From assembly GCA_963693095.2 (NCBI GenBank), contig OY843768.1:512001-576000 (forward strand): a stretch of 64,000 nucleotides of DNA, given 5' to 3'. The notes under the pieces are model-generated. The model worked only from the letters and a program-made list of their open reading frames with translations. It was not told where the DNA came from and made no database searches. The DNA is from Cenarchaeum sp. (GTDB lineage: Archaea; Thermoproteota; Nitrososphaeria; Nitrososphaerales; Nitrosopumilaceae). The translations under genes were made by a program, and so were the position numbers. Below, piece after piece: positions 3,038 through 64,000 of the stretch; positions within the stretch are counted from its first letter, which is position 1; every line of letters begins with the position of its first letter.

Positions 3038-3059
3038 GGACTGGCACGTCGGGCGTGGC

Positions 3060-3920: not shown

Positions 3921-3984
3921 GGCAGTGTGCGATCCGGGAACCCTGACTGTGATCGCCATGTCGCGCTTTGGATCTCGTTTTCAT

Positions 3985-3998
3985 GGGGGGGGGGGGGG
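3985..3998 (+). repeat. Poly-G homopolymer tract (14 G)
   Basis: Run of 14 G about 40 bp upstream of the TATA box of the giant gene. Confidence 0.95.
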
Positions 3999-4024
3999 CG
4001 CGATCATTGCGCAGTGGTGGCGTA

Positions 4025-4047
4025 GATCACATGATCACATTATATAG
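4025..4047 (+). promoter_or_regulatory. Archaeal TATA box (TTATATAG) of the giant gene, abutted by a GATCACAT direct repeat
   Basis: TTATATAG at 4040-4047 is centred about 26 nt upstream of the in-frame ATG at 4070. GATCACAT-GATCACAT occupies 4025-4040, the BRE position. Confidence 0.7.
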
Positions 4048-4069
4048 ATCGGCGCACCCATGCCCCCTA

Positions 4070-4165
4070 ATGGGTGTGGGTGGAGGTGTACTCCTAGTGT
4101 CAGCTCTAGCTGTCCTTGCGCTAGCTGCGCTCTTGCCGGGGGCGCTCCATGGCGAGGCCTGGGCC
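4070..4165 (+). other. Sec-type signal peptide
   Basis: Hydrophobic core VLLVSALAVLALAALL and an A-W-A cleavage motif, followed by a Pro/acidic linker. It lacks a basic n-region. Confidence 0.75.
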
Positions 4166-7100
4166 CAGACCGATCCAGATCCCGCCCCAGAGCCCGAGCC
4201 TGTCCCCTCGCTATCCTCTGCGGTGACCGTCTCGCGAGAGTCAACGAGGGTCACCTTTCCCGTAAACGTCTGGCACGGCGCCACGCCGACAGCCGGCTGG
4301 ACAGTCGATGACGGGCAGGAGCACATCGTCTTTGGCTTCGTTCGCGAGTCCGCGACGAGCTATCTCCTGCGCCACTCTGCGCTCCTGAGCACGGCCTCGA
4401 CTCCGGTGATAGGCTACGACGGGACCGGAACGTTCGTCACCGATGCGGGCGCTATGGGTGCGGGAACAGTCACGGCCACTGACGGCGTTGCGCCCGAGGT
4501 CTTTAGATTGGAATGTGACTGCAGCAATCGAGTCTTCTTGCCGCCTGCGGATCCTGTTGTGAACCCTGCCCGTCGGGGCAATACCATTACCATCACATTC
4601 TCCGAGCCCTTGAAGGAGTCGCCAGCACCCACATTTGAAATTCGGCACACCAATAGGGGCGGCGTTGGTTTACCCAACACTAGTGTCGGTGATGGATTTG
4701 ATGTTGGGGGGTCTACGGGGGATCCGCGAGTTACCCGGCATGGTGACTCTAGGTATGGCCTGTATCTTCTCAACGAGCAGGCGCCAGCCCCCCAGGGGGA
4801 TAGCTTTTATCTCAACTTCGAAGATAGGGTATATCACGTTACGACGACCAACATTGCCGACGCTCACGGCAACACCTTTGGCGGAACTATCACCACTCGC
4901 ATCTCTTGGTACGATCCTCCCACCATTGCTGAATATCGCCCCCAATACCAGCCAAGCCCCGTTGTAAATTCCCACACGTTCTCCCAGACCCAGACGCTAG
5001 TAAAGTTCTCCCAATATGTCTACCCGTTCCACCCCAATCCGCCGGATCGTGGGGTTGGTGGCACTGCTGCGGATCGTGTGCGCCACTGGACCGTAAACGA
5101 CGGCGTGAATCGCGCCGTCACCGACGTCCAGCTGCATTCGGCAACATTGACCACAGGCTGCAACTATGATCCGCCAACCACGACCCGCGGAACATACTGC
5201 TCCCTCAATCTAATTCTCACACACGCGCCGCTGGCAACCACAGGCTCGACGCCGCGCGTGTCATACACGCCGACGGGCACGGACTTTCTCGGCCAGGTCA
5301 CGCCGGCCCATCGGTGGGCTCCACGCGCAACTGCGTTTACCCATCTAGCCGAGGATTACACGCTCCCGACGCTCATCTCGTCGACCTCGACGTCTAGGAC
5401 CACAACAGAGGTCAAGTTCAGCGAGCCTGTCCAGTTTGGCACCTCGACGGCCGCACAAAGGGCAGCGCACTGGCGCGCCCTGGAGGGAACCTCGCCCAGG
5501 ACGGTCAGCGACGTGGTCATGGGGGACACGCGCGACACCATCGTCCTCGTGCACGACCCCGTCTCAACAGGCTCGCCGCCCGCACTGTCGTACGTGTCTG
5601 GCGCGTCTGAGGGTCGCGTGCGTGACATGTCAGTACACCAGCACCAGCTTACCGCACTGCCCTCACAGACGCCCTCGGACAAGATCCCGCCGGGCTTTGG
5701 CGCAGCAGTCACGTCAGCGACGTCGGTGACTGTGACCTTTGATGAGGCCATTGTGGCCGCAACTGGCACCGGCGCGCGCGCCCTGGCGGCGACTGACTGG
5801 ACAGTCGAGACCGGCTCGGTCACGGCTGCCACGGGCAACGACATTGCGGTCTCCTCGATGGCCGCAGGCACGACGCCGGGGACGTACGTCCTCACGCTGG
5901 CCTCGCCTGGCATAACCGACGAGATCGGCATGCCAGACACTGACATTGAGGCAGTCATCCACGTCACATACTCGGCCGGCGTGCCCACGCTGGTCGACTC
6001 GAAAGGCAACGCCATACTCGACGGGGAGACGGCCCGTGCGACTGACGCGTTTGCGCCAATCGTCCTGCACACCGAGACGACCTCGCCCACAACGACTGTC
6101 ATCACGCTCACCGAGCGCGTCTCGATAAAGAACGACGCAATCCCATCAACGAACGATGACACCATTGCGATAGGGCACTGGCAGGTTCGCGACACGGCCG
6201 TGCGCGCAATCTCGGCCATTGCAGTCACGGGAGACTCCACGCAGGTCACGCTCACGCACGCAACAGTGGCCGACGTGACCTCTCCGCCGTCAGTCACGTA
6301 CACGCAAGACGGCGGACAGGCCTTTGGGCGCATAATCGACGCGGGCGGAGTCGAGATGCGCAACTTTGCTGGCGGGGGCCTTGAGACGCTCATCCCGCGG
6401 ATCGTCTCGGCTACCACGACAGGCCCGCACACCGTGTCGATCGAGCTAAACAAGGACATCCGGTACGGGGATGTCACAAAGATATCCGAAACCCTCGGCC
6501 TGTGGGCAATGAATGACGGGTCTCCGGCCGACCAGCGCTACCGTGTCTCCAACGTGGCAATCCTGCCGGGAGACGCCTCGGTGCTGACCCTGACGATAAA
6601 CTCGATGACCTCGCCGCGTGACATCCCCGTATACGTCCCCTCATCACTCCTTGATGGCAGTGCACTTAAGCTCAGCTACAACAATCCCATGCCGTCACAG
6701 GAAAGCCTCTACAGGGACTTGCGCCTTGATGATTCGCGTGGAATTCCGCTTGTGTACAGGGAGGACGTCCTCGTCTCAGACGGCATCGCCCCACAGATCA
6801 CCTCGGCGTCATTTGCGTCACATGACGCCTCGACATCACCGGCCACGGGAACCATAGAGGTGACGTTTGACGAGAATGTCAGGATCGCCACCGGCATGAC
6901 TGCCATGCCGTCTGACTGGACGCTCACCGGCGGAACCACGAACACGGCGACATCCGTGTCAGTCACGTCATACTCGATCTCGGGAAACAAGGCGACGATA
7001 TTGCTGTCAATGTCCGGCCCGCCTGACACGGGATATGCGCCAACGATCAGCTATACGGCAACCGGCAAGATGCTCGACACGATCGGCAACGTGCTGGCGA

Positions 7101-10100
7101 CACCGGCAGCGGCGACTGTGTCTGATGATGTCGCGCCATACCTCGTCTCGGCGCGCACGCTCTCCTCCACGCGCACAGAGGTCATAGTGTCCGAGCCCGT
7201 TGCGCTCTCGGGCCTGCAGGCCGAGCGCCTCGCCGAGTGGCGCTACACGCAGGGCACCGTGCTTGACACGTCAAACATACTGGCACCGATCTCGATAACG
7301 CGCGGCACTGACGCTGCGAGGATTGACCTGGCGCACGCGGCCCTCGCTGATGCGGCCGACACGATTGCGCTCCGCCACACGCAGGGGCCAGTGGCTAGGA
7401 TCGTCGACCTCGCCACGCCCCCCAACGGCCTGGTTCGCGGCATCACGCACATCACTAGCTCTGATGCGACCCCGCCGCTCGTAAAGTCGGCGTTCTTCAA
7501 GTCCTCGACGTCGATACGCGTTGTCTTTGACGAGGTCATGCAGGACGCGGCCCTCACGCAGGGCGTGCCGGTCCTCGCGCCGGGCGTGACTGTCGTGCCG
7601 CCTCCGGCAGACTATGAGTCCTTTTCGTATGCGGGAATGGACTCGCGCGCGCACGTCACGTTTGGCGCCGCGCAGACACTCGACGCCTCCTCTGGCACGA
7701 TGCGCGAGTACCGGTTCTCCGTGCCCACAACGCTGGCCGACTCGGCCGGCACGGCATACGTCGCGCCAGTCGGCTCGTACGTCAGCGTGGCCGCCCATGA
7801 CGGCGCGCCGCCCGAGTTCTCCGTGACTCGCGCCTCGGCAACGTCGCTCCACGTGACATTTGACGAGCCCGTGCGCCGCGTCGGGGCCAGCCCGCCGGCC
7901 CTGGCCACTGCGCACTGGCGCGTCGAGACTGGTGACGTGCCCACGCCCACACTGACTGCTGATGACATTGCGGCATCTGCGGTCTCGCTGTCTGGCAACG
8001 TGATGACCATCACGCTCTCGGGCGTGACGCTGGCTCCGGATGCCACGCCGCACGTGACGCATGTGGGCTCACCAGCCCAGATCGAGGACCTCAACTCCAA
8101 TGCGCTGGCCACCGGCGCGACGGCCCAGGTGCCTGACACGACTGTGCCGTCCATCCTGCGCGCCGAGTTTGCCTCCCTTGCCATTGCCGCAGACAGGAGC
8201 AGCGCGACGGGAACCATCCGCCTGACGATCTCCGAGCCCGTGCGCGTGGCCGGCACGCCGGCGGCATCGGACTGGACGCTCACCGGCGACACGGGGGGAA
8301 CCGCCACGACGCTCTCGATAGCCTCGTATGCCGTCTCGGGCAGCACAGTTGACATTGCCGTGTCAATGTCTGGCACGCCGCACACGGGACTGACGCCAAC
8401 AGTCTCGCCCTCGCGTGCGGCACTCCTCGACATGGCCGGCAACGCGCTGCCCACAAGCGCCTCTGCAGTGGCAGCTGACAGGATATTGCCTGTCGTCCTG
8501 GCCGGCAGCACGACCTCTCATCTGCGCACAGAGCTTACGCTCTCCGAGCAAGTGACCCTTCATCCGCGTGCACCGACTCAAACCTCTGCGTTTACCTTCT
8601 GTTATGAGAGTTGTGGAACCTCGCGACTTACTGATAATGTGACTCTGTTGGATCTGGAAGATGGCAACACGATCGTCATATCGCACGCGTCGCCCGTGGG
8701 AACCAACAACCCACTGAGCGTCGTCTATCAGCCACGAACTGCCGGCGCCGGCAACCTCGTGTCGGATCTTGCCAGTCCTCCAAACTACCTGCTAGACATT
8801 CTTATCCGTTCGCCTGTTATTGCCACTGATGGCATGCCGCCTCGACTGCACGGAATCTGGTTTGGATCGGCCACGAGCATGACGCTGCGCTTTAGCGAGC
8901 CCCTCAATGCGGCAACAGTCACGGCCGCCGCGTCGGCAACGTCGCCGTCAGGGCAGTTTTCGGTCTCTGGCCAGACGGTCACGGGCGCGGCGCTCAACCC
9001 TGCCAGGAACGAGGTCACACTCACGCTCTCGCCGGGCGTGGCACAGGACACCACATACACGGTCACCGCACCGGCCTCCCTGACTGACGACATGGGCAAC
9101 GCGCATGAGGCCCACCCTGTCACGGTGAGGCGAACGACTGATGCGCCCACGCTCTCGCAGGTGTCCTTTGAGCCGCATCGTGTTGGCCGCATTGTGCTGC
9201 ACTTTAGCAATGCGATGGATCCCAGGTCAGTCGAGTCGCTCGGGCCGCAATTCTCGTACTCGCCCCCGCCCATCTTCTCCACGGGGTACTCGGCCCACAT
9301 GGGACAAGACCCCAGCGAGGTTCGCATATTCACAACCCGGCTACAGATTCTGGGCGTAACAACCCGCACGATAACGGTTCCCACGGGCCTTCTTGACGCA
9401 AATGGCAACGCCTACGCGCAGCCGAGCACGCCGCACTCGGCCGCCCCGGCGCCGGCGCCAAGCGTGCAGACGGCGGCATTTACCGCCTCAAATACCATAC
9501 TCCTCACGTTTAACGTGAACCTTGACGGGGATCACATACCGGCCACCGTTAGGGCGGCCGTACCGGGCTTCCTTCCACAGAACGCGGCCTTTTCACACTC
9601 TGGCAACACGGCCACTGTCATGCTGTCACCTGCGGCGACTGAGGGCCAGGCCTACACAATAGAGCTGCCCACCACAATCCGCAGCACGGCCGGCGTCCGC
9701 TATGTGCAGCCAGAATCGTCGATCATGGCCACATATGACACGACGCCTCCGCTGCTCTCCTCGGTGACCGTCTCGCGCACCTCTATCATCGTAGAGTTTA
9801 ACGAACCCATCCTATCCCCTCCCCTATCGGCGACCTTGACCAGATCAAGCAGCTCGGAGAGGATATTTGTCGCGCCCTCCCTGCGCCCCGCGGGCTTTGA
9901 GATTCCCATCGCAACATTCAACCCCGTCGAGGGCGAGACGTTCACAGTCACCCTGGCTTTTAATGACATAACTGATCATGCGGGCAACGCGTGGGTTGCC
10001 GTGCCGCTGGCCGGAATCTATGACACGACCGCACCGGTTATAGAGTCGGCGCACTTTGGGGCCGCGAACGTCATTGTCGTAAGGCTGAGCGAGGCACTTG

Positions 10101-13100
10101 ACGACTCCACGGTTCCGGCGAGCGTGACGGTGACGCCTACTGGCGGCACGCCGGTCAGCGCAACGACGTCATACACGGCAGGCGAGACGTCAATGACGCT
10201 AACACTTTTGGCCAGCGCTGCAGCAGACACGCCGCACACGTTCCGCCTTCCGGCCACGCTGACTGACGCAAACGGCGTTGCGCACATGCCGTCGACGGCA
10301 TCGGCCAACCGCCAGACGGGCACGCTCTCCATAGAGGGCCACACGTACAGGATTGTTAGCACGCAGGGTGTCCAGTCTGCGGAGATCTATGTCAGGTTTA
10401 GCAGCCCGATATCGCCATACTCGCTTGACCAGCTCACGAACCCCATTCTGGTCCGTGTGGGCACCTCTGCTGGCTCTGACCGCCTCTTTTCCCAGGAGAG
10501 ATCCAACGTGCCCTACAGCGACACGATACAGTTCACGCTCTCCGGCAGCAGCACGTTCAACGCAGATGACACGCTCCACGTGACGGTTCCCGCAGGCCTG
10601 CTGGCCACCAACGGCCACTCATACCCGGCACTGGTGCCGCCGTGGTCGGCCACGCTGGGACTGGCCACGGGATCCCTTGACACGACGCCGCCGACCGTGG
10701 CGAGCTCTGCGTTTACGGGGGATCGCACGATACGCGTGACGTTCAGCGAGGCGCTGCGCGCCACGAGCCTTCCGACATCCGTCGCCGTCACGCTGCCTGA
10801 CGGCAGGGTGGTCTCGGCGGCCTTTGGGCCGGCATCAGGCAACTCGTATGACATATCGCTCTCCACGTCGCAGGCCCTCTCGGGCGTCGGGGGCGGCGGC
10901 GCGACGTACAAGTTTGTCATACCGTCGATTGTCCTCGACCTTGCGGGCAACGCGTACGTGCAGCCGACGGTGCCCCACAGCGTGCGCGCCTTTGACGTGT
11001 CGCCCCCGACATTCTCGGCGAGCCTAAAGTCCCCGACGTCACTGGAGGTAACGTTCCTCGAGGATGTCCGGCACGCCGACTTTGGCACCGGCATGGTCAT
11101 TCCGACATCACACTGGCGCATCGAGACGGGAAACACGTCGGCCCTTGACACCTCCAATGACGCCGCACTCTCGTCGATATCGCGATCGGGCCGTGTCCTC
11201 ACAATAACGCTGTCCGGTGACGGCCTGGAGGATGACGACACGCCGCACGTGACGTACACGTCTAGCGTGCCCGGCTTTTTCGACACGGCAGGCAACGCGA
11301 TCGCAGCGGGCACGTACGCCCGCGCGACTGACGGCGCGCCGCCCGGCGTAGAGTCCATAGAGTTCACGGCACGTGACGTGATCACCGTCACGTTCGGCGA
11401 GTCGCTGGCCGGCACTGACGCCGAGATCACCGGCATGACCTACGTCGTCACGGCCCCTGACGGGACTGGCCCGGCCGATGCTGACACCGATGATGACGTT
11501 ATACCGCTGGGCACTCCGATCGCCACGCACAGCAAAAATGCCGACGCGCACTCTGTCCTGGCGATAAAGCTTGGGGCCGCTGCGACGCATGGTGTCACAT
11601 ATACGGTCGGGCTGCCAGCCGGCCTGCGAGACGTGCCGGGCAACGCGCTCGTGGAGCGTGCGCCGGCAGTCGAGCATGACGCAGCCGCGCCAGTCGCGAC
11701 GGCAGTGGCATACCGTGTACTGCCCCCGACCGGTGATGCGCCAAGGCTCGCGCCATACTCGGACTATGCGCGCATTGGCGACCGCGTGGAGCTCACAGTC
11801 ACGCTTGATGAGGCGGTGAGCGCCTCGCCAACTGTCCACTTTGTCGGCAACACCGGCGCTGCTGACTCTGTGACAATGACGCGCGTTGGCATGGCCGAGT
11901 CGTGGAGGGCGACGTACACAGTCGAGACCATGGCGCAGAACGCCCGCATGATTGACGGCCCATTCTCGTTCTCGATGCGCGCACTTGACACGGCAACGCA
12001 GGGGGCAAACGTGGCGCTGATAACGGCGAGCCTGGGCCATGCGCCCTCGTACACCGCGCCGAGCCCGCCCGTGGTGGATCGCACGCCGCCTTCGGCGACG
12101 ATGGCACTCTTCCTTGGGCGCACCGTGCTGGCAGTAAAGTTTGACGATGTCCTTGTTGCGAGCACTGTTCCGTCGGCCATATCGTCATACTCGGTGAGCG
12201 TGCCTGACGGCACGGTCGGCGCCGCTGACGGCTCGCCGGACACAATCACGCCAACGCAGCCAGTGAGGCAGGTGACTGGCGCCGACGGGACGACGAGGCT
12301 GGAGATCAGCATCCCGTTCGTGGCCGGAAGGGACATGATCGCGCACACTGTCACGGTTCCGGCCGGACTCGCCGACCTTGCCGGCAACGCGCTCGCCTCG
12401 CCTGTCTCGCTCACCACCGCGCACTCCTCGAGCCTGGCATTTGGCGCGAGCACCGGCGGCCTTTCACACGAGCTCTTTGTGACCTTTGCTGGCGCCATAG
12501 CCGGAAGCACGGTCACGTCTGACTGGCACGTGACGCATGACGGCCAGCGCCTCACCGTCATCGAGCTCGAGTACATGCTACAGCCGGCATCTCCGGGCAT
12601 GCAGGGCGAGACGGGGGGCGGCTCGTCCATAAACTTTGACGGCCTGGCCCTCAATCCGGCCAACACGTTTCGCCTAGAGATGTACCCCGGTGACATGCTC
12701 CCGCCGGGCGCGACGCCGTCAGTGACGTACACGGCACCGTCTGGCATTGCCCGCCTTGGGGGCATAGTCGACCCCGCCAACGGGGGCCATGTGGTCACGC
12801 GCACGGTCACGGCATCTGATGTCATCCGTCCGGGCATCCTGGCAGCACACGTGACCTCGCCCACGCAGGTCTGGGTGGAGTTTGACGAGCCGCTATCGGC
12901 CGGAACGTTTGACGCCTCGCGCTGGGCCATGACGTTTGGCGCCAACGTGATACAGGTTGGATCCGCCTCGCGCGCAGCCGACCATGACTCCATTGAGCTC
13001 ACGCTGCCTGCCGGCGTGACGCTGCCGCAGGCAATGTACGCCTCGTCGTCATCTAATCTCCGGTCCGCCGTGATATACTCCTGGCCACACGCGTCAAACC

Positions 13101-16100
13101 CCGAGATCAGCGATCTTGCGGGCAACCATATCACCGCCCCAATCGACATCGACGGCCAGACGCGCAGGGTGAGCACGAATGTGTTCTATGACTCGTACGG
13201 GCCGCACGCCATGTCAATAGCGTATGCGGTCCTGGAGCCTGGCGCCACGCCGACTGACCCGCCGGTGCCCAGGGCCGCGCCATTTACGACACACGCGCGC
13301 GTTGGGGATACCGTGCGCGTGACCGTGGACCTTGACCAGGACGCCTCGGCTCCGCCCAGCGTGAACTTTGTGGGCAAGACCGGCTCGTCTGGCGCAGTCA
13401 CCATGTCGCGCGTCACCACCGGTGATGACACCGACTGGACGGCAGACTATGTCGTGGAGGACGCCGTCACGCTGCCCACACTTGATGCGTTCTCGTTCTC
13501 GATGAGCGCCACTGACAGGGCCGTTCGCGGAGTCCTGCCGCCCAACATGTCGACGATAACAGAGTCCTCTGGCCACACCGCCTCGCTGCCCACGCCGCCT
13601 GCCGTGCCGACCATAGACCGCATAGCGCCGGCCCTGGATCCTGCAACACCGCCGTCGATCTCGGGCAGCACGCTGACTGTGACGTTTGGCGAGGATGTGC
13701 GCGGATCCCCGACAGTCGGCCTGACCACGCCGTCTGGCGATTCACGCCAGGTCGCATCGACGACTAGCGGCAGCACGCTTGCCGTCGAGCTGGGCACAAC
13801 GCCGACGTCTGGCACGTTTACCCTGAGCATTCCGGCAACGCTGACTGACCTTGCCGGAAACGCGCGCGCGCCGGCTGCAGGCACGGTGACGGCGTCTCAC
13901 ATGGCACCATTTGAGGCAACCACTGCCAGCGCGACTACGACGCTAGTCACGTTCGGCGCGGCGTTGGGCGGCACGCTTGACGTGTCCCACTGGAGCGTGA
14001 CTGACCCTGCGGTGGCCATCACGGGAATATCGACCGTTACTGCCGATGGCATGGGCCAGGTCACCGCGACGCCGGCCGGCCAGGGCGGCACGCCGGCGGC
14101 CGTGACGCAGACGGTATCGTCGAGTCCGGAGGCGACATCGCTGCTCATAGCGCACGCGGCCGTCCCCTCGGGCTCGACGCCCAGGATAACGCACGATCCG
14201 ATGCAGGCCAGCGGCCTCAGCGCGGCGGGATCGCCGGTGGGCGGCCCGCACGCCGTCGTGGCCTCTGACGGCGTGGCGCCGTCGTTTACGGCCATGACGG
14301 CTGCGCGCACGTCGACTGTCGTGACCTTTGCCGAGCCTGTCGACGGCACGACATCGGCGGCCGAATGGACCGTGGGCGGGGCAGTGGCGATCCCCTCGCC
14401 GGCATCACCGAGTGCGGCAAGCGAGATCACGCTCACGCACGCGCCGCTTGGATTTACGGCCGGGACTCCGGCAGTCGCGTACACGGGTCCGGCGACTGGC
14501 AACGGCGATGCGCTAGCCGACGCGGCCGGAAACGAGGTTGCCCACGCGACGCCTGACGCCGCCGACGGCGCACCGCCAGTCGTGGACTCGGTGGCGTACG
14601 ACTCGGCGACGCGCACGATAACGCTGGCGTTCAGCGAGGGCCTTGCGCAGTCCACGGCCGTCGTCGCAAACTTTGGCGTGTACGGTGTCTCCTCCTCTGG
14701 CGTGCGCACGGGCAGCGCGCTGGCACTTGCCGCCACCGGCGGCTTTGCGTACACGGCCGGCGCCACGGCAGACGCAGGCTCGACAGTCGCACTGACGCTT
14801 TTGGCCGATGACACGCACGCGTCATACAAGGTGACAGTGTCGTCCTTGGTGACTGACACGGCGACAACTCCCAACGCGTATGTCCCCATCGTCAACCCCG
14901 ACGACGACGCACTCACCGATGACAGTGACATTGCGGTTCCAAAGTCTGACACGGCCGGGCCGCTGGCAATGGCCGTCTCCTTTGTCGTCTATGATGACAA
15001 GCTCGATCCGAACATCGTGTCTGACACGCTGGACCTGACAACTGCGCGCGCCGGCCCATATGCGCTCTATGCCAACGCCGATGACACGATCCGCCTGAGT
15101 CTGACGCTCAACGAGGATGCGTCCACACCCCCGATGATAACCGTGCCCGGCACGGGCCGCACGCCAACTGCAACTGCCATGAACAACGCCGGCGACACGA
15201 GCGCAAGGACATGGCAGCATGACGTTATAGTGGGCGCGACTACGGCCGAGACGTCTGTGACACCGTTTTCATTCTCGATATTGGCAAGCGACGGGGCAAC
15301 GCCGGCGAACCAGCAGACGATAACGGTGACTGCGGGCCACATGGGGGCGCCCATGGTGGCACTGCCGACAATAGACCTGACGTCCCCGACGTCGAGCTCG
15401 CTGACAACTGCAGTCAGGCTCGCGGGAGCCGGCTCGGACTCGGCAACGGTCACCACGGCCGGCATCGGCGAGGAGGTTCGCGTGAACGTCACGGCAAGCG
15501 AGCCCCTCGATGCCCTCGCAGGCGACATTGCGCTCTTTGGGCGCACGGGTTTGGCGACCCTTGGCGCAGACACAGTCGAGACGGGTTCTGGCAACGCGTA
15601 CGCGTACGTGCGCACGATCGCCGGGACGGACAAGAGCGGCCTCTTGGAGTTCAGCCTGATGATCCGCGACAGGGCCGGCAACGCGGCGGCGTCTGCGCTC
15701 ACGCACTCGACGGTGACGAGCCGCGTGGGGGTCGACGCCGTTGCCCCCACGTTCACGGCGCGCACGGTCTCGGCGTCCTCGCTCACAGTCACGGCCAGCG
15801 AGCCGCTCACGGGCACGACTGCAGCAGGTGACTGGACAGCCGTCCACTCCGAGCCGGGGCGCTACATAGCCGCCTCGATCACCGGCGCGGTGGTCTCGGG
15901 GAGCACGGTCACGATAACGTATGGCGCGATCGCCGACACGTCATTTGCGCCATCCGTGCGATACTCGGGAACTGGCCTGGCCGACTCGGCGCGAAACGCG
16001 CTGCAGGGCGACGCCAGCGCCGCAGACGGGAGGGCACCAGAGTTCACCGCAAGAACGTCAGGCACGACGACTACGACAGTCATGTTCGGGGAGCCTGTCA

Positions 16101-52453: not shown

Positions 52454-55400
52454 TCAAGCGGTCAGTAACGGACACAAAGGGCCACATGTACGCCCCCGTG
52501 CCCAACACCGGCGGCCCGCACACCGACAACGGCGACATCACGGTCCTGAGGGGTGACACGGCGGCCCCGCTGGCCACAATGATAGTGGTCAGCGTCCACG
52601 ATGGCCCCGCCACGGTCCCGGCAAAGACCGGCGAGCACGCGCCCTTTGCCGGCGTCGGCGACACGGTGCGCATCGCGCTCACGCTCGACGAGGCCGCCGT
52701 CGGCGCGCCAGAGATAACGGTCGCCGGCGCGACGCGCGCGATGACAAGCACGGGTGCCGCCGGCGCAATGGAGTGGTTCTATGACCTCCTAGTGGTGGCC
52801 GCCGCCCCCGGGACGCCCGCCACGCCCGAGGTTGACGGTGCCCCCGAGATGGGCTCCACGCCCCCGACGCCTGCGACTCCCGAGGAGGCCATGCTCTCGT
52901 TCTCTATATCCGTCACCGACGGCGTGAACGGGGGCACGATAACCGAGACGGCAGGCCACTCGGGCACTCTAACAGTCAGCCGCCCCGCCATAGACGTCAC
53001 GCCGCCGACGGCCTCGTCGGTCACGACGGCCGTGAGGCTTGCTAGCGCCGGCGCCGACGCGCCGGCGGGCACCGTGGCCGGCATCGGCGACCAGGTCCGC
53101 GTGACGCTCACGGCCAGCGAAGCGCTCGACGCGCAGACCTCCGACATTGCGCTCTTTGGCGCGCTCGCCGTGCCGGCCGACTCCGTCGCGCCCGCCGGCG
53201 CCAACGCGTACATCTACGTGCGCACGGTGGAGGCGACTGACGCCGACGGCGCGATCGAGTTCAGCCTGACGGTACGTGACAGGGCCGGCAACGAGGCGGC
53301 CGCGCCGGCGACGCACGCCACGGCGACTGAGCGCGTGAGCGTCGACGCCACGGCGCCGACGCTCGAGTCGGCCAGGACGACGTCGACTGCGACCCTGGAG
53401 GTCACGCTCTCCGAGGACGTCACGGGAACGAGCGCCGACGGCGACTGGGCAGTCGCCGGCGCCACAGGGGTCGAGTTCGTGTCGGCCTCGGGCAGGATCG
53501 TGACGCTGCGGTACGACATCGCGGCGACGTCATTTGCGCCGATAGTCACGTACTCGGGCACGATCCTGGCCGACTCGCAGGGCAACCCGCTGCGCGCAGG
53601 CTCGGTGACGGCCGCTGACGGCGTGGCACCAACGCTGGCCCGCGCGGCCTTTGCGTCCGGCGGCACGACTGTGACGATGCTCTTTAGCGAGGCGATCGCC
53701 ACGCCGCTGCACCACCAGCTCTCCCTTGCACTGTCAAGCGATGTGCAGGGCACGCCCTCCCCGCGAACCGGTCCGGCGACGGCCTCGGGCAGCACGATAA
53801 CGTTCCCGCTGACGATCGCCGTCTCGTCGGTGGCCGACGGCACGGTGTTCAGGGTGGCAGTCGTCGCGGGCTCCATAGTGGATGCCGGCGGCAACGCGTA
53901 CGCCGAGGACGCCATGAACCCCGCGACGGCTACGTACGACCCCACGGCGCCGACGTTCACCGCCGAGTTCACCGGCGCACGCACCGTCGTGCTGACCTTT
54001 GATGACGTTCTCGCGGAGGCTACGGTCACTGCCGCCAACTTTGGCGTGACGGTGCCCAACGCGACTCCCGGCGGCGCCCCCGTCAGCGTCGCGCTGGACT
54101 CTGACAGCCCAGTTGCCTACGCCTCCGGCTCGGTGACAGTCACGCTTACGCTCGCCGGCGACGCGACGCAGGGCGTGGTCCACACAGTCACCCCGAAGGC
54201 CTCGCTGACCAACAGTGCGCACGTGCCGTACGCCGCCGGCGGCGTCGAGGCCACGCGCGCGATCACCGACATGACCGCACCTACGGCAAGCTCGATAGCC
54301 TTTGAGGTGTACGACGGCACGCCGGATGCCGGCACGCTAAAGACCGGCGACAGCGAGCTGCTCGCAAGCGACGGGGACACGATCCGCCTGATACTGACGC
54401 TCAACGAGGACGCCGCCGGCACGCCGACGATAGAGGTGGACGGCCTGACGGCGGCGGGTACCGCGATGGGCGACAACGGCGACGCGCTGGCCACGACGTG
54501 GCACCACGACCTGCTCGTGACGACCTCCCCGGGCGAGGCGGCCTTTACGTTCACGATCAAGGCGGCTGACGCGGCGGGCAACTCGGAGCCCATAACGCAG
54601 GCCGCCGGCCTGGCCTCCGGAGTCACCGTCAGCGTGCCGACCATAGACCTGACTGCGCCGACGGCGACTGCGGAGTTCACGGCGGCCAGGACGCTAGTCA
54701 TCACGGCAGGCGAGGCGCTACTCAACACGAAGGCGCAGGTGGAGGGCTATACGTTCGCCGTGAGCGCCGGAGGCAGCACCGTCTCGCTGGCCACGGCGGA
54801 CCCGGCGGCTGACCCGCCGGTGATGCCCATCGTCTATGACGCGACGACCCGCACGATCACGCTCACGCTGGCCGCCGACGCGGCCGCCGCCGAGCACACA
54901 GTCACGCTACCGGCGGGCCTGGCCGACCTTGCCGGCAACGCGTTTGCCTCGGGCGCCACGACGAGCGCGACGTACACGGCAGACGCGCCGGACACTACTG
55001 CGCCAACGTTCAGCGCAAGCCTCACGTCTGCGAGCACCGTGACGATCACGTTTACCGAGGCTGTCAGCGGCACGACGGCGCCGGCCGAGTGGACCGTCGC
55101 CGGCTCGACAGTCATCACGGTCACGCCCTCCTCGCCGTCCTCGGTTGACGAGGTCGTCCTCACGCTGTCGGCCTCGCGCGTGGGCACGGCACTGGCCGAC
55201 CCAGACGGTGATGGCCCGCTCGAGGAGATCACGCCGGCAAGCGTGGTCTATGCGCGCCCTGCGGCGGACTCGGCGACTACGTCTAACACGCTCGCCGACG
55301 GCGCTGCCAACGACCTTGCCGCCGCCGGCATGAGGGCCACGGCCACGGCAGTGACTGACGGCGCTTCACCGACGGCCAGGGCGGCCTTTTTGGGCAGCGC

Positions 55401-58400
55401 GATCGTCATCCTGTTCAGTGAGCCGGTCAACGGAGTGCCGGCCACGCTGGGCCTCACGCCGCCGGCCGGCTCGACTGTCACTGGCGGCCAGCTTGGAGCA
55501 GACCACGCCGACGGCACCGCCAGGGCGTCAGTCGCGATCTCCTCGCCAGATGGCGGCGAGTACTCTGTCGCGCTGCCCACGGGCATAGATGACGCCTCGG
55601 ACAACGAGCTCGCCGCCGTCTCGGTGACTGCCACGTACGCGGAGGACACGTCGGCGCCTACGTTCAGCGCCGAGCTGACCTCGGCGCAGACCGTGAGGAT
55701 CACGTTCAACGAGGCCGTCTTTGGCGTGACTGTCGGCTCCGAGTGGGCAGTCGCCGGCTCGACAGTCAGCACTGTGGTGCCGTCCTCGCCCTTTGATGCC
55801 ACAGAGATCGTCCTCACGCTGTCGGCCTCGCGCGTGGGCACGGCACTAGAAGACCCAGACGGTGATGGCCCGCTCACGGAGATCACGACGGCGAACGTGG
55901 TCTATACGCGCCCGTCGACGGGTGATGACACGCTCCGGAACTCGGCAGAGCTCCGCCTTGCAGCCGCCGCCGGCGGCTCGACATCTGCCACGGCCGTCAC
56001 CGACAAGGCCGCGCCGACGTTCACGGCGCGCACGGCGACCACGACGACAGTCGCCGTCACGTTCAGCGAGCTTATACACAACTCGGGGGAGTTCGGTGAG
56101 AAATGGGAGAACGTGGCTCACTGGAGGGTGGACGGTGCCATGCCGACTGGGGTCATGGCGGCCAACACGACGTCTGCCACGATCTACACGCTCACGGTGG
56201 GGGCGGCCTTTGGCGTGGACGCCACGCCGTCGATCCTCTACGTGCGCCCCTCCGTTTACTACCTCTCTGACGCGCTGGCTGATAGCTCAGCTGACTTGCC
56301 CGACGCCAACCACGTCCTGTCTACGCCTGCCGACATGCCAATAGTCGCCTCTGACGGCATCACCCCGCCCGTCGCAGTAGACCCCTTCACGGCAGCCACT
56401 GCGAGCCTCACGACGACGCTCGTGACCTTTACTGGCAGCGCGCTCACCGGCACGCTCGACGTGACGAACTGGACGGTCACCGACAACGACACGGCCGACT
56501 CGATGAATGTGGAGCACACGCCATCTAGCGTGGCGACTGCTGCGGCTGACGGCACCCCGACGTCGACTGCGGCCACGGCGAGCACCCCGATTGCCATACC
56601 GAACGGCTCCACTGCCAAGCACCTGCTCATCACGCACCCCGAGCTCTCCTCGACGGCGGCCACGCCGCAAGTCGCGTATGAAAAGCCCGGCACCAGGCCG
56701 ACCGGCGGGTTCCTCGCCGAGGGCACCTCGGATGTCGCCACGCGCGACACTGCGGCGACTGACGGCGCGCCTCCGACATTCACCGCCGAGTTCGACGGCG
56801 CCACCACGATCACCGTGGAGTTCAGCGAGGCCGTGACCGAGGTTACCGCGGGCTGGTCGGCGAGCGGCGGCCTTTCGGTGTCGACCGTGGGCTTTGACGA
56901 CGACACGTACACGCTCACCGTCTCTGGCGCGACTGACGGCACAACGTACACGGTCAGCGCGCCTGGCACGATCAAGGACAAGGCCACGCCGACGGCCAAC
57001 ACGATAGACGCCGACGAGGATGCAGACGCGACGTACACGGCGCCGCCGGAGGCCTTGACTGTGGCCTTTTCGGCGTACAACGAGCTCCGCGTGACCTTTG
57101 GCTATGACATAGTGGAGTCGTCGATCCCGTCAACGCTGACGGTGACGCCGGCCATAGGCACAGCGACGGCGCACGCGGCGAACGCCGACCCCGACGACGC
57201 CAGGACGATCATAGTCAGCCTTGGCGGCGGCGCGGCGGATCAGACCGCGTACACAGTCACGCTGCCTGCCGCAATATCGCGCACCGACGGCGTCGCGTTT
57301 AACGGCGCCACGGGCAGCGCCGCCGTGCCGGTGTCCGTCGAGCGCGAAGGCGGCGTGGGCGATGCCTCGCGGGTGGTCCTGGTGTTCCATTATGACGCGC
57401 CGGACATGCGCACGCTGGCCGGCATGGCCGCGCCCACGGACTCTGAGGGGTGGGGCACGCTGCGCGTCACGCCAGTGCGCGGCGACCTGCCGGGCAGCGT
57501 GGCGCTCGGCGCGGCGTTTGACGCCAGGGTCACGACAAGCGGCTCGACACCCGACGGATCGCGGATCAGCGTCCATGTCGACCCGTCGCACTTTGCGCTC
57601 GCGACGCCGCAGTCCTACGAGATCGTGCTCCCGTCGTCGCTCAAAGAGCACGTCGCAGGCGATGACACGCCGGCTGACAACGACTCCCTCCTGGCGATAC
57701 CCTTTACGTTCACGACTGAGGCGCATCCGGCGTTCACGGCTGAAATCGTCTCGCCCACGCGAATCGACGTCACGTTCACCGGCCCTGTCGGCGTATTCGA
57801 CGATTTCGATATCGGCAACTATGAGGATGATGACGACCACCCTGACGGCGAGATATTTGTGCCGTACCAGACGCTGCCTGCGCACTGGATCATCGACCAG
57901 ACCCCCGGCGACCTGCCCGCGGTGAACGCGAACGTGGCGAGCAGGGACAACACGGTGGTCTTTTCGGCCGCAGAGCTCGTGTTCGGCGAGTTTCCAGAGG
58001 ATGGCGCCATGACCATGCGGCTGACCCTGCAGGAGTCTGACGCGCTGCTGCCCGATGCGGCGCCCGTGATCCGCTACTCGCCCAGGGTTCCGTTTGCCGT
58101 GGATCGTGACGGGTACTATCTGGTTGCCGTGGACCCCGTGTTTGGCGCTAACGAGGACCGACCCGTGCTCCCGTTCACGACGGCCGTGGCGCCGGACACG
58201 ACGGCTCCGACGTTTAGCGCCGAGCTCACGTCGGCTAGCACGGTAAAGATCACCTTTACCGAGGACGTCGACGGCACGACGGCGGCCTCCGAGTGGAGCT
58301 TTGACGGCACTGCACCGGCCTCGCTCTCGCTGACGGCCACCGGCGGGACCGAGACCGGAGACCTGGTGTTCACCGCGGCCGCCAACGAGCTCTACCTCGC

Positions 58401-61400
58401 CCTCGCCTCCGCGCGCGCTAGCACCGCCCTGGGCACACTGGCCGCCTCGGACGTCACGTACACCCCGCGCAGCACGGGCGCGCTGGTCGACACGGCGGAC
58501 AACGCGTTCGTGCTGGTCAGCGGCATGGTCGAGGCCACGGCGATAGCCGACAGTGCGACGCCGACGTTCAGAGCCGAGTTCGACGGCGCCACGACGATCA
58601 CCGTGGAGTTCAGCGAGGACGTGACTAAGGTTCTGTCGACGGATCCGGCGGAGGGCTGGTCGACGTCTGGCCTGTCCGTGTCAAACGTAGCCCACGCAGG
58701 CGCCGAGTACACGCTCACCGTCTCGGCTGCCACGTCCGGCACGCAGTACACGATCAACCTGGCAGACGACATCGCCGACATCGCCACGCCGGCCAACGCG
58801 ATAGGCGACGGCGCCATGACGACGGCGACGTACACGGCGCCTGACCCCTTCGCGGCCGCCACTGCGAGCCTCACGACGACGCTAGTGACCTTTGACGGCG
58901 GCGCGCTGGCCGGCACGCTCGACGTGGAGGACTGGACGGTCACGGACAACGACACCGGCTCGGCGGACGCGGAGCTGGTCATATCGAGCGTGGCGACGGC
59001 TGCGGCCGACGGCACCGCGACGTCGACTGCGGCCACGGCGGACACCCCGGCCGGCATACCGGGCGCCTCGACTGTCACGCGCCTGCTCATCACGCACGAC
59101 GCGCTCTCCTCGACTGGCGCCACGCCGCGCGTCGACTATGCCGGCGGCGACCTCAAGGAGGGCGGCGCCAGCGGCACCAGCGTCGACGACGGCGGTGCAG
59201 ACGCGACTGATGGCGTAGCGCCGACGTTCACCGCCGAGGGGTCGAAACAAGACCGCATCTACACCGTGACCTTCTCCGAGCCCGTCTCGCTGGCCACCGG
59301 CAAGACGCCGCCGACGGCGGCCGACTGGACGTTCACCGGCACCGGCATTGCTAGAGGCCGTGCTACTCCGGCCACGTTTGCGATCACGCCTGGAGCGTAT
59401 TCGCCCCCTGACCGCGTCAACGATACGCCGGCTAGCGGTTATGCCCTCAACCTGGCCGAGGACGAGGCAACGATGGTGCCAAGTCAGAGAACAGGCGGCG
59501 GCCGAAACGCCGTCTCATTCGCTACTCTTTTCGACAGTACGATCATGCTCGTGTTTAGAGCTGCCGACGACACCAGGATGAACTCGATAGTCGACGACGC
59601 CGGCAACGCGCTGGCCGACGGAACATCGGTACAGCCAGAGGAGGACACGACGGCGCCGGACTTTACTGCCCGCACGAGCACCCTGACGCAAACGAGGGTA
59701 ACGTTCACCGAGGACGTCACGGGCACCACCCGCATCGGCGACTGGTCGATCACTGACGGGAGCTCCCAGATAACCATCACGGGCATTGTCACCGTTGACA
59801 CTGCCACCGGTGATACCACCTCGTCAACCACACACGAGAATCCTAGTGGCGTGACCTTTATCCACACCAGCCTCGCCTCGACGGGCGCCGAGCCGACAGT
59901 CTCGTACACCAGGCCGTCTGAGTCGGGTACCGGAACGCTGGCCGACCGCGCGAACAACGTCATGGGCACCGTCAGCACGCCACTGGAGCGTACGGCAGAC
60001 GACGGGGTCACGCCGGTTGCGAATGCGGGTCGCTTTACGTCGGCCAACACAGTCGAGGTTGACTTTGGCGAGGCCATGGCGGCGCCGACCACCCAGACGC
60101 TGACGGCCACGCTCGAGGGCACGCAGACGACCATAGTGGACAACGGCAGCCCCGCGTTCTCCACCCCGCCTAGTGGCGTGGCCAACTCGCGCCTGACGTT
60201 CACGCTGGTCTCCAACGCCGCACAGGGCACCTACACGCTGGACCTGTCGACTGCCATAGAGGACGCCAACGGCGTGAGAGTGGCCCAAAGCGCCGAGCTG
60301 ACAGGCGTGCGAAACGACAATGTGGCACCGACGCTGGTCCAGGCACAGTTTGCCTCCGCGCAGAGCGTGACGTTGCTCTTTAGCGAGGCGATAGAGCCGA
60401 CGCTGCCAGACGGGCTGACGTTCACGCTGGCCGGCACGCCGACTGTCACTGCCGGCACGGCGACAGTCGATGACAGGACGATAACGATCCCCGTGACGTC
60501 TAGCCTCACGGCCGCCAACGACGGGACAGAGTACACGCTGGGGATTAGCGGAGGCGCCATAGAGGACCTCGCCGGCAACGACTATGTCGCCACGGCCCCA
60601 GTGACCATAACGTATGACACGACTGCGCCGACGTTCACCGCTGCGATCACCGGCCCGAGGGTCATTGACCTGACGTTCAGCGACGCCCTCGCGCCTGCGA
60701 CAGTCGTGGGCGCCAACTTTGCGGTGACGACGCCTGACGGCGACGACGCTGACAGCATAGCCGAGACTGTCGCGCTGTCCAGCACAACCCCTGTCGCTTA
60801 TACTGCAGGCGAAAGGACAGTCAGGCTCAACCTCGCCGGTGACGTCATCTCGGCGGTTCACACCGTCACGCCGAGCACAGAGCTCGCCAACGCCGCATAC
60901 CTGCCGTACGCCGCCGGCGGCGTCGTGGCCACGCGCAGCCCGGCGCCCGTGGCGACTGCGATAACAGTCACCGTTCACGACGGCGATCCGGCCACGGTTG
61001 CGGCAAAGACGGGCATCGCTGCAGGCTTTGCCGGCATTGATGACACAATCCGCGTCGCGGTCACGCTTGACAAGGACGCAGTCGGCACGCCGACAATAGA
61101 CATCAACGGGAACACCGGCGCGTCCATGGTGAGCACCGGCGGCAGCGACGCAAAGACGTGGCACTATGACCTCGCCGTGTCAACAGGGACGGCCGAGACG
61201 ACATCGCTGGACTTTACGATCAGAGTCACCGACGGGACGACTGCGGGCACGATAACGCCGACGAGCGGCCACTCGGCCTCGCTGACTGTGCCCCGGCCGT
61301 CCATAGACGTCACGCTGCCGACGGCGACGTCAGTCACCACGAGCGTCAGGTTCGGAGCCTCGACTGCCGACGAGCCATCGGGCACAGTGGCCGGCATCGG

Positions 61401-64000
61401 CGACAGGCTTCTCGTCACGCTCGTGGCAAGCGAGTTCATCGACGCGACGACAGGTGACATTACGCTCTTTGGTCGGACCGGCGCGAGTGCGGTGAACGCC
61501 GACAGATTCTTCTCTGACTCTGGACCCACCGGAGTCGCGTACGAGCGCGTGATACAGGCGACTGACGCCGACGGCGTGATCGAGTTTAGCATCACGTTCC
61601 GCGACCGTGCCGGCAACGAGGTGGCCGCGCCGGTGACGCACGCCACGGCTACTGCGCGCGTGAGCGTCGACGCCACGGCGCCGACCCTCGAGTCTGCTGC
61701 GACGACTTCGACTGAGACCCTGGAGGTCACGCTCTCCAAGGCCGTCACGGGCGCCGGCGTCAACGCCGAGTGGTCTGCAGTGGACGGCACGACGGCGGCT
61801 GCGATCTCCGACGTCGACGTCTCGGGCGTCACGGTGACGCTCACGTACGCGACGATCACCGACACGTCATTTGCGCCGACAGTCACGTACACGGGCACGG
61901 GACTGGCCGACTCGGCCCGCAACGCGCTTGGCGGCGCCCCCGTCACCGCCGATGACGGCCTGAACCCAACGGCCAAGGCGGCCTTCTCGGGCAACGTGAT
62001 CACGATAACGTTCAGCGAGCCGGTCAACGGCGTGCCGGACACGCTGCAGGTCACGCCGCCGGGCGCGTCGGCCGTCCAGCTTGGCGCCGACCATGACGAC
62101 GGAGATTCGACGGCGACTGTCGAGATCGACTCGCCGGAGTCTGGCGAGTACACAGTCGCCCTGCCGTCTGGCATAGACGACGAGGCTGACAACGTGCTGG
62201 CCGCCGGGGACGTGCGCGCGACGTACACGCCCGCCGTGCCAACGGCGACTGCCGTGGCGTACACGGTCCTTGATGGGAGCACGGCCAACGCGAGGCCTGA
62301 CCCGTACGCCTCCCACGCGCGCGCCGGCGACACGATCAGGCTCTCGATCACTCTTGACGGCGAGGCGAGCTCGGTTAGCGTGCTCTTTGTGGGCAAGACA
62401 GACGATCCGGACATGACGGCAGACGACGCCAACACGGTTACCATGGTGCGCTTCGGGAGCACGAACGAGTGGCGCGCGTCATATGTCGTAGAGTCTGCAG
62501 GCTCCATAGACGGCGCGTTCACGTTTGACGCGACGGTGACGGCCGCCTCGGGCATGACGCGCCCTGTGGACGAGGCGACCCTGCCGACGCCGCTGCCTCC
62601 GACGATCGACCGCGTCGCGCCGACGGCGACGGTGACTGCGACTGTGAGGCTAGAGGACGCGACGGCAGACTCGACCACTGTCACGCTGGCCGGAATCGGC
62701 GATGACGTCCGCGTCAACGTGGCGGCCAGCGAGACGCTCGTCACGGCAGTCGGCGACATTGCGCTCTTTGGGACGACGACTCCCGCCGACTCGGTGGCCA
62801 CCGGCACGTCCAACGCGTACTCGTACGTGCGCACGATAGCCGCCTCGGACGCCGGCGGCGCGCTCATGTTCAGCCTGACGATAAGCGACACTGCGGGCAA
62901 CACGGCGACGCTCACGCAGGCCAACGTGGCATCGAACGTGACGGTTGACTCTGGCGCGCCGACGTTCAGCGCAGAGCTCACGTCGGCTAGCACAGTAAAG
63001 ATCACCTTTGTCGAGGCCGTCAGCGGCACGACAGCGCCCGGCGAGTGGGAAGTCACCGGCTCGTCCGTCGAGTCGATCTCGCTGGCGGAAGACGGGATGC
63101 CCGGGACGGGCGCCGTGACGCTCGATGAAACCGACGAGCTCTACATCACGCTCGCCTCCGCGCGCGCAAGCACCGACCTTGGAGGCCTGGCCGCCTCGGG
63201 CGTCGCGTACGTGCCGCTCGCAGCCGGCACGCTAGTCGACCTGGCCGGCAACGCGTTCGTGACGGTCAACGGCAAGGTTGCGGCCACGGCCCTGGCCGAC
63301 AAGGCCGCCCCGACGTTCACCGCCGAGTTCGACGGCGCGACCACGATCACCGTGACGTTCAGAGAGGCTGTGACTGCGGTTACCACGGGCTGGTCGGCGA
63401 GCGGCGGTCTCACGGTGTCAAACGCGGCCCCTGACGCCGACGACGCCACCACGTACACGCTCACCGTCTCTGGCGCGACTGACGGCACAGGGTACACGAT
63501 AAGCGCGCCTGGCACGATCATGGACAAGGCCACGCCGCCCAACACGATAGAAGCCGGCGAGGAGGCCACCGCGACGTACACGGCGGCGCCCGCGCCGACG
63601 GCGACTGCCGTGGCGTACACGGTCCTTGAGGGGAGCACGGCCAACGCGAGGCCTGACCCGTACGCCTCGCACGCGCGCGAGGACGACACAATCAGGCTCT
63701 CGATCACGCTTGACGGCGAGGCGAGCTCGGTGAGCGTGCTCTTTGTGGGCAAGACAGCCACTGCTGACGCAGTCACGATGACCCAAGTCACCGGGACCAA
63801 CGAGTGGTTCGCGACGTATGTCGTAGAGTCTGCAGGCTCCATAGACGGCGCGTTCACGTTTGACGCGACGGTGACGGCCGCCTCGGGCTCGACGCGCCAG
63901 GTGGACGAGGCGACCGTGTCGGCGACGACGCCTCCGACGATCGACCGCGACGCGCCGACGGCGATGGTGACTGCGACTGTGAGGCTTGAGGGCCAGGGCA
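52252..64000 (+). CDS. Continuation of the giant repeat protein after an apparent 1-nt deletion; about 3,916 codons, open at the window end
   Basis: Frame +1 from 52252 reads EPSTATAANIAVYG..., completing the motif seen as FSEGLAQSTAVVANFGVYG (14630) and FSEGLAPLTAVAANFDVYG (22853). The same module types follow, and the window ends in-module (...AMVTATVRLEGQG). The ORF track lists no terminated ORF in this frame, consistent with no stop. Confidence 0.9.
62239..64000 (+). repeat. Repeated module pair (PTATAVAYTVL...PYASHAR...FVGKT... followed by TVTATVRLE...) at 62239 and 63595; related copy at about 45200
   Basis: ACGGCGACTGCCGTGGCGTACACGGTCCTTGA recurs 1,356 bp apart, with near-identical downstream sequence (ATGTCGTAGAGTCTGCAGGCTCCATAGACGGCGCGTTCACGTTTGACGCGACGGTGAC). 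Confidence 0.85.

Follow-up and report, generated by a model that had tools for sequence, protein, structure and literature searches.

A candidate 92-kb gene for a giant secreted surface protein in a Cenarchaeum-type ammonia-oxidising archaeon

The giant gene and its host

The stretch of DNA analysed here (the window) comprises 64,000 nucleotides (nt) of contig OY843768.1 (G000:C1:512001-576000, with window position 1 at G000:C1:512001), and it holds the first two thirds of a candidate giant gene for a secreted surface protein. The open reading frame (ORF) listing gave two very long plus-strand ORFs. The first, at 3968..52453, encodes 16,161 aa when counted from a TTG and 16,127 aa when counted from the ATG at 4070; the other, at 52486..63999, had not closed at the window edge. 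A single change of frame near 52,250 separates them, with 16,062 codons before it and about 3,915 after it up to base 64000, counts that agree with those of the initial annotation of this DNA. That annotation had described one gene of at least 60 kb and about 20,000 aa or more; the single giant gene stands, and its size has grown to 92.1 kb and ~30,700 aa. When the contig was extended as the annotation had proposed, frame 2 stayed open over 14,652 codons, the last of them ending at G000:C1:608165, and reached its stop at G000:C1:608168, 32 kb beyond the window, with a conserved C-terminal domain just before it (Table 1). From the sequence evidence set out below, we consider it fairly probable that the 92.1-kb stretch is one real gene of a Cenarchaeum-type ammonia-oxidising archaeon, encoding a secreted surface protein of 30,699 residues, with the frame change being an assembly error or a minority variant.

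From ATG to stop the gene measures 92,099 nt, or 4.6% of the genome. Based on its base composition, chance would place ~361 stop codons in the 16,127 codons of the first frame and ~328 in the 14,652 codons of the second (~689 in total). None was observed, and consequently the giant ORFs are real as an observation. Within the giant ORFs the G+C content is 63-70%, up from 53% over the first 4 kb of the window. The read-through product, with an X at the break, has a mass of 3.10 MDa, is strongly acidic (isoelectric point, pI, 4.19), and contains 61 N-X-S/T sequons and 32 cysteines, which are mostly paired. Dozens of antisense ORFs of 150-830 aa also overlap the giant gene on the minus strand (5356-63857, e.g., 27535-30027), and these look like the shadow frames usual in G+C-rich coding DNA.

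The source genome consists of 2,003,945 bp in two contigs and is rated 99.55% complete. A full archaeal small subunit (SSU) rRNA gene lies on the same contig as the giant gene, 44 kb upstream (G000:C1:468135-469604, 1457.6 bits), and an archaeal AmoA was also found on that contig with 389 bits (cut-off 25.6). Both bear out the archaeal origin suggested earlier from the window. The resemblance to host-associated Nitrosopumilaceae was supported at genus level, as the closest genomes with the same C-terminal domain are labelled Cenarchaeum sp.; the labels of the nearest genomes with this domain also include, e.g., Thaumarchaeota archaeon S13 and Nitrosarchaeum sp.

Table 1. Features of the giant gene and its surroundings. 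Plain positions are window coordinates, and prefixed positions refer to contig OY843768.1.
Feature	Position	Strand	Remarks
549-aa ORF with AAA_15/AAA_21 ATPase domains (OLD/AbiEii-type)	1538-3187	-	Upstream of the giant gene; Pfam
G14 tract	3985..3998	+	TATA box 41 nt and ATG 71 nt downstream; seen in sequence
TTATATA, archaeal TATA-box-like motif	4040..4046	+	23 nt before the ATG; seen in sequence
Frame 1 of the giant gene	4070..52252	+	16,062 codons; Pfam Big_5 matches
Predicted Sec-type signal peptide, residues 1-32	4070..4165	+	Hydrophobic N-terminus; putative cleavage after A-W-A, before Q
Three related Cys-pair inserts, ~160-280 aa	18407-19252, 27797-28267 (approx.), 38801-39637	+	Non-repeat, conserved cysteine pair
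Interval bounding the frame change	52166..52446	+	Paralogue alignment and two short-read contigs
Frame 2 of the giant gene	52253..64000, continuing past the window	+	Module sequence to a stop outside the window
TAG closing frame 1	52451..52453	+	~65 out-of-frame codons past the frame change
Conserved C-terminal domain	G000:C1:606411-608165	+	Last 585 residues, non-repeat; ~380-585 aa
Stop of the giant gene	G000:C1:608166-608168 (window coordinate 96,166-96,168)	+	Frame extension past the window
605-aa protein: zinc ribbon, PEGA, C-terminal Mrr_cat restriction-endonuclease	G000:C1:608204-610021		Starts 36 nt past the stop of the giant gene
Poly-G tracts before family genes	3985-3998; G000:C1:337054-337067, 493170-493190, 766200-766215(-), 776010-776027(-), 1324331-1324348(-)		
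Seventh run, G13	G000:C1:1328123-1328135	-	Follows a near copy of the sequence upstream of the 24,633-codon gene; only a 370-aa ORF after it, 134 nt away

Signal peptide, module array and C-terminal domain

The secreted nature of the protein, proposed in the initial annotation, was borne out by its signal-peptide-like N-terminus. Residues 1-28 were the only part of the whole 30,699-aa chain with a Kyte-Doolittle mean above 1.8 over 19 residues, they are followed by the putative cleavage site, and the paralogues carry similar hydrophobic N-termini ending in A-x-A-Q. The same profile of the whole protein gave no transmembrane segment besides this N-terminal stretch.

Pfam was run on 19,055 of the 30,699 residues, including the last 4,055. 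Big_5 (PF13205) exceeded its cut-off of 23.6 bits in three of the four pieces scanned, with scores of 226.9 (first 5,000 aa), 23.5, 115.9 (residues 10,001-15,000) and 119 bits, which supports the tandem beta-sandwich modules proposed earlier, and a six-frame search placed further Big_5 matches in both frames of the gene. Weak CopC matches were also present. The first 5,000 residues gave a marginal SWM_repeat match with a whole-protein score of 30.4 bits (cut-off 27) in which no single stretch passes, and the other three pieces gave none. A self-iterated hidden Markov model (HMM) identified 201 diverged Big_5-like modules of ~112 aa each, and a second HMM identified 44 modules of ~85 aa, including 35 that lie clear of the first set. 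Both types together (~236 modules) cover 84% of the chain. The window part contains 159 modules (138 Big_5-like and 21 of the second type), within the 150-190 estimated previously. The modules appear to be old and diverged, with a median pairwise identity of 22% and a 99th percentile of 43%.

Thirteen stretches of at least 80 aa were left uncovered by the module HMMs, one of them being the internal sub-domain copy described below. Three related inserts with a conserved cysteine pair may be ligand-binding; they had no Pfam match, and the ESM Atlas returned only scores below 0.8 for the one insert searched. At an expectation value (E) of up to 1, Pfam gave nothing for the N-terminal 428 aa, the three insert types and the C-terminal 585 aa, except for a 13-bit hint of Big_13. 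The first 3,000 residues had no PDB match in a sequence search, and no ligand-binding or lectin domain was found in the Pfam-scanned pieces, the inserts or the C-terminal region.

The gene ends in a conserved, non-repeat domain. The C-terminal region occurs at 12 places in this genome and in all four of the genus relatives, and its 190-aa core was found in 10 of 20 other genomes of the family that were searched. Within this genome it ends frames of 16,125, 11,156, 6,067, 4,447, 3,498, 3,064 and 3,062 codons, and it is also present in the piece that follows the 24,633-codon frame of the longest paralogue. The core is 47-78% identical to 19 paralogues and orthologues, with the invariant stretches C-x-D-C-T-P-P-T-L-G and W-D-x-x-x-N-x-W-Q-N-x-F-N-H-G. 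A copy of the first sub-domain (residues ~45-231), 36% identical, lies within the giant gene at G000:C1:590253-590792, ~5,800 residues before its end, and the 24,633-codon paralogue also holds an internal copy.

Searched against 1.84 billion proteins, a profile of 20 sequences matched 838 cluster representatives with E<=1e-3, of which 269 reached E<=1e-30. In 170 of the 172 homologues fetched the domain was C-terminal, with at most 250 residues after it and between 26 and ~3,000 residues before it; one exception carried it N-terminally, with TPR repeats after it. A hydrophobic N-terminus was present in 102 of the 156 homologues that start with M, and a hydrophobic C-terminus in just two. The partner domains included Big_5, DUF7948 with an SBBP propeller, peptidase and solute-binding domains, and the named homologues were annotated solely as 'hypothetical protein'. 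Because it is conserved at the C-terminus of many different secreted payloads, we infer that the module resembles a surface-retention or sorting domain.

AlphaFold2 with 120 sequences modelled the domain as a beta-sandwich core followed by two long helices, with a mean predicted local distance difference test (pLDDT) score of 83.9 and values above 95 for model residues 40-210. The model from 20 sequences was poor (pLDDT 61.9), with no Foldseek match at E<=1e-3. Searched against the PDB with Foldseek, the better model gave generic V-set/immunoglobulin (Ig), pilin-like and nanobody matches only, none of them at E<=1e-3 (best E 1.0e-3, query TM-score <=0.23). The C-terminal profile found nothing in PDB sequences below a meaningless match at E=0.84, and the ESM Atlas gave no usable match for the core.

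Gene family, frame change and integrity of the locus

The giant gene belongs to a family. A six-frame search with the module HMM identified 18 ORFs, or 16 genes after joining two breaks, which together comprise 118,672 codons and 356 kb, or 17.8% of the genome; six of the genes exceed 5,000 aa. At least 87 Big_5 matches were found in this genome (88 of 314 candidates scored), compared to 54 in the relative G004, 16-23 in three fragmented metagenome-assembled genomes of the genus, and 0-12 in 36 more distant relatives searched. In the relative G004, 25,697 codons form one uninterrupted frame, which has a signal peptide of its own, and giant size is therefore no one-off. The Cenarchaeum paralogues and orthologues, this frame among them, share with the giant gene the poly-G tract, the signal peptide, the Big_5-like array and the C-terminal domain, which is 78% identical. 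In contrast, the giant gene is ~5,000 residues longer than the G004 gene and its first ~10,000 residues match paralogues at only 27-51% identity. No collinear orthologue of it was found in G004.

Over the rest of the giant gene, 500-aa tiles match paralogues at 45-94% identity in a non-collinear order. Tiles at 34070-37069 (residues ~10,001-11,000) are up to 94% identical to the 24,633-codon ORF or the G004 gene, with a nonsynonymous divergence (Ka) of 0.033 and a synonymous divergence (Ks) of 0.081. This pattern indicates segmental exchange or gene conversion among the giant genes, which would be recent in residues ~10,001-11,000. Eight paralogous segments had Ka/Ks ratios of 0.41-0.89.

Upstream of the gene, the first in-frame ATG after the TTATATA motif is the one at 4070. 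We take this motif to be a putative promoter element from general knowledge of archaeal promoters, and its spacing to the ATG suggests a leaderless or nearly leaderless mRNA. A poly-G tract precedes it. Contig C1 has just 15 runs of G or C of at least 9 nt, and six of these (G14, G14, G16, G18, G18 and G21) lie 59-78 nt upstream of the starts of family genes, each ~30-40 nt before a TATA-like box; TTATATA itself stands at the same spacing before five of these six genes. The region of a seventh run, G13, may be what is left of a duplicated promoter. In G004, 12 runs of at least 12 nt are present. One was seen in the sequence ~66 nt before the start of the 25,697-codon gene, and by coordinates alone three more fall at the expected 5' ends of family frames of 3,061, 2,961 and 5,232 codons. 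The lengths of orthologous tracts are not the same in the two genomes (18 vs. 19; 16 and 18 vs. 19 and 17), with the provision that exact poly-G lengths are unreliable in long-read assemblies. Tracts of this type are classic slippage-prone switches in bacteria. The G14 tract may be a hypermutable, promoter-proximal element common to the giant-gene family, and by analogy the tracts may act as phase-variation or expression-tuning elements.

The change of frame is a single -1 shift within one Ig-like module, placed by homology at ~52,245-52,260, where one base is missing from the window. In the same genome, the 24,633-aa paralogue aligned straight across the site with 73% identity over 350 residues. 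Frame 1 becomes an Arg/Pro-rich, out-of-frame reading for ~65 codons before the TAG, whereas frame 2 is module-like from ~52,255, and the position of the TAG beyond these out-of-frame codons is the reason why it is probably not a real stop. Public short-read contigs were compared with window positions 42001-62000, and the shift was judged from the contigs listed. Among these, both contigs that span the site (two of two) carry one extra base and are otherwise identical to the window: X3 record 22 has 2,217 letters over 51848-54063 (2,216 positions) and X5 record 27 has 282 letters over 52166-52446 (281 positions), each with one gap and no other differences. The extra base, which was deduced from the length of each record against its span, fuses both frames, and the interval agrees with the frame-overlap zone at 52210-52453. 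The listed X1 and X2 contigs begin at 52,332, beyond the site. X5 has another study and organism label than X1-X4. Reading the sequence by eye, we found neither a long homopolymer nor a slippery heptamer at the site. The ATG at 52486, where the second ORF starts, has no signal peptide after it, and no further stop or shift occurs over the 44 kb downstream. Programmed -1 frameshifting was rejected on the grounds that no slippery heptamer is visible and the spanning contigs carry the extra base. The one frameshift reported in the initial annotation is thus present in the deposited sequence and, with two of two contigs carrying the extra base, probably not real; it is most likely a consensus error or a minority allele of the assembly.

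A similar break was found in the 24,633-codon ORF on the minus strand, which has a one-base-type shift at G000:C1:~1250832, ~1,030 codons before its end. This ORF and the following 1,061-aa piece match the uninterrupted 25,697-codon frame of G004 at 92% and 86% identity, respectively, and from this alignment the shift is probably a second assembly error. There are no other breaks in the 356 kb of family genes, and the two fall in the two longest genes.

Alternatively, the frameshift could be real in this strain, leaving a broken pseudogene or a 16,127-aa protein that is secreted without its C-terminal module and released rather than anchored; the 14,652 codons downstream would then be untranslated. 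The shift in the assembled sequence, the comparable one-base-type shift in the orthologue of the intact 25,697-aa gene of G004, and the location of both breaks in the two longest genes are in line with this explanation. We nevertheless regard it as quite unlikely, given that the spanning contigs come from two studies and differ from the window solely by an additional base, that the 44 kb downstream are free of stops and shifts, that the site is neither a long homopolymer nor a slippery heptamer, and that the downstream ATG lacks a signal peptide.

A further explanation is that the 92-kb ORF is an assembly chimera, which arose by joining several shorter paralogous repeat genes or by placing their segments in the wrong order. 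The mosaic relationship to the paralogues, with 500-aa tiles matching the 24,633-aa ORF or the G004 gene at 50-94% identity and out of order, would fit such an origin, as would the 153 100-mers repeated within the gene and the short-read contigs over the region, which are short and show many joints skipping 0.7-16 kb. However, these joints have short sides (21-47 nt), as repeats give in a de Bruijn graph, and the listed contigs from three runs match over 0.5-2.6 kb with no differences. The locus has a single promoter, poly-G tract and signal peptide at its 5' end and a single complete C-terminal domain at its 3' end, the only internal match to the latter region being the 36%-identical copy of the first sub-domain, and no stop occurs inside. 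Given the divergence of the modules (median identity 22%), unique sequence makes up most of the gene, and a 25,697-codon frame built in the same way occurs in the relative with a complete, single-contig genome. Misassembly by concatenation, which the initial annotation had named as the outcome that would overturn it, is therefore not supported, and we judge a chimera to be very improbable.

Several observations weigh against reading the locus as one intact gene for a surface protein. The deposited sequence itself carries the frameshift, and with a second giant gene of the same genome also frame-shifted, recurrent real truncation is conceivable. The extra base is bounded to 52,166-52,446 rather than base by base, and one of the supporting runs comes from the same study as the best-matching run, so that it is possibly not independent of the assembly. 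The short-read contigs are fragmented, with many repeat-induced joints, and none of those compared spans the 92 kb. The Ka/Ks values are compatible with weak constraint, though they also fit a fast-evolving surface protein. The Ig-like nature of the modules rests on the Pfam Big_5 matches, and neither Foldseek, PDB nor Pfam searches linked the C-terminal domain specifically to a structure or sequence of known function.

Possible role, known relatives and neighbouring genes

If the gene is intact, the chain would be exported by the Sec pathway and its signal peptide cleaved after A-W-A, and the C-terminal module would keep the protein on the cell envelope, either by non-covalent attachment to the surface layer (S-layer) or pseudo-periplasm or through self-association of its helices. 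Ig-like modules of bacterial adhesins and titin measure 3.3-4.4 nm each, so ~236 of them could extend as a flexible filament of ~0.8-1.0 µm, longer than the cell. Such a filament may attach or tether the cell in the sponge matrix (mesohyl), or build a protective, strongly anionic coat. We infer an adhesin, tether or coat function from these features, and adhesin and coat are inseparable on present data.

A variant of this proposal takes the gene as described and gives its product the main role of a polyanionic coat rather than an adhesin, which would enrich ammonium and other cations close to the S-layer or hide the cell from phagocytes of the sponge and from viruses, with the repertoire of proteins varied by recombination and poly-G tracts. 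We hold this to be possible, if on the doubtful side. It is favoured by the pI of 4.19 over 30,699 residues, by the 17.8% of the genome given to the family, with its mosaic exchange between paralogues and raised Ka/Ks ratios, and by the hypermutable-looking tracts upstream of six family genes. Recombination, raised Ka/Ks and hypermutable tracts are typical of variable surface repertoires. The available portion of a study on a sponge thaumarchaeon also links low-pI S-layer proteins (3.4-4.08) to charged-solute acquisition, and suggests adhesion or recognition as possible roles of the expanded S-layer-type proteins there and in Ca. C. symbiosum (PMC6790972). On the other side, none of the results here separates a coat from an adhesin, and no ligand-binding or lectin domain speaks either way.

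Among known systems, the RTX-type giant adhesins are the best mechanistic analogy, as they too form long filaments of Ig modules. SiiE, LapA and the Marinomonas ice-binding adhesin are filaments of hundreds of nm built from bacterial Ig-like domains in tandem, with one end held on the cell and the other used for binding. RTX-type giant adhesins leave the cell by type I secretion, carry RTX repeats at the C-terminus and lack a Sec signal peptide, whereas the giant protein has an N-terminal signal peptide and no RTX or type I secretion features; no RTX-type family was found in the Pfam scan, nor in the C-terminal 585 residues at E<=1. An archaeosortase/PGF-CTERM-type anchor was likewise not indicated, with no C-terminal hydrophobic helix in the Kyte-Doolittle profile of the whole protein and a C-terminus that is charged and helical. 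SwmB of marine Synechococcus and other bacterial giants of the SWM_repeat or Big type resemble the protein as very long secreted chains of tandem beta-sandwich repeats at the cell surface. It differs from SwmB in being archaeal, in having another C-terminal module, and in the dominance of Big_5, with no stretch that passes the SWM_repeat threshold alone.

Halomucin of Haloquadratum walsbyi, at 9,159 aa, was at publication the largest of the known archaeal proteins, as stated in the accessible part of that report (PMC4378361). By the description given there, this archaeal giant likewise bears a signal peptide, is extracellular and is thought to surround the cell, but it is about one third the size of the protein found here and is mucin-like, not an array of Ig modules. 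In the portion available, a preprint on giant genes sets 'giant' at >=30,000 aa or a gene >90 kb, with examples from Omnitrophota, and finds many fewer proteins >10,000 aa in Archaea, mostly in Asgard archaea (bioRxiv 10.1101/2023.11.21.568195). As described in that portion, the Omnitrophota giants belong to the same size class; they are, in contrast, bacterial, mixed enzymatic multidomain proteins linked to predation. A UniProt survey gives, in its available part, at most 7 proteins >=5,000 aa in any archaeal proteome (PMC11573180), compared to six such genes in this genome. The accessible parts of two papers on sponge thaumarchaea do not describe giant proteins (PMC7848895, PMC6790972). We found no published description of these proteins in the portions of the literature available, and the supplementary tables of 10.1101/2023.11.21.568195 and PMC11573180 might list thaumarchaeal giants. 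The protein appears to be a variant, previously undescribed as far as found, of the known giant repeat surface proteins, and the ORFs of its relatives are public as 'hypothetical protein'.

If made as one polypeptide, it would be roughly three times halomucin in length and would mean that archaea with 2-Mb genomes and coupled Sec export make extracellular proteins on the scale of titin. The share of the genome spent on the giant gene and on its family argues for a central role in sponge life, with attachment, avoidance of digestion and shaping of the ionic micro-environment of an ammonia oxidiser as candidates. The widespread, unnamed C-terminal domain is a candidate means by which thaumarchaea keep proteins on an envelope without a wall polymer. 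The poly-G tracts offer a concrete lead to phase variation in archaea, for which we know of little evidence. More tentatively, and rather unlikely in its full form, this could be the largest archaeal protein described (~30,700 aa), in the size class of >=30,000 aa documented before for bacteria such as Omnitrophota, and part of a recombining surface-filament repertoire that takes up ~18% of a 2-Mb symbiont genome and is switched or tuned by the G14-G21 tracts, as an archaeal counterpart of bacterial contingency loci and phase variation. Giant genes are also under-counted, because single-base errors in long-read assemblies can split them.

The giant gene is flanked upstream by the AAA_15/AAA_21 ORF, whose two small adjoining ORFs had no Pfam match, and downstream by the zinc ribbon-PEGA-Mrr_cat protein (Table 1). 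These neighbours were rejected as functional partners, being absent beside the other family genes. A ribosomal protein S8e gene lies 3 kb downstream of the giant gene, which indicates a chromosomal context.

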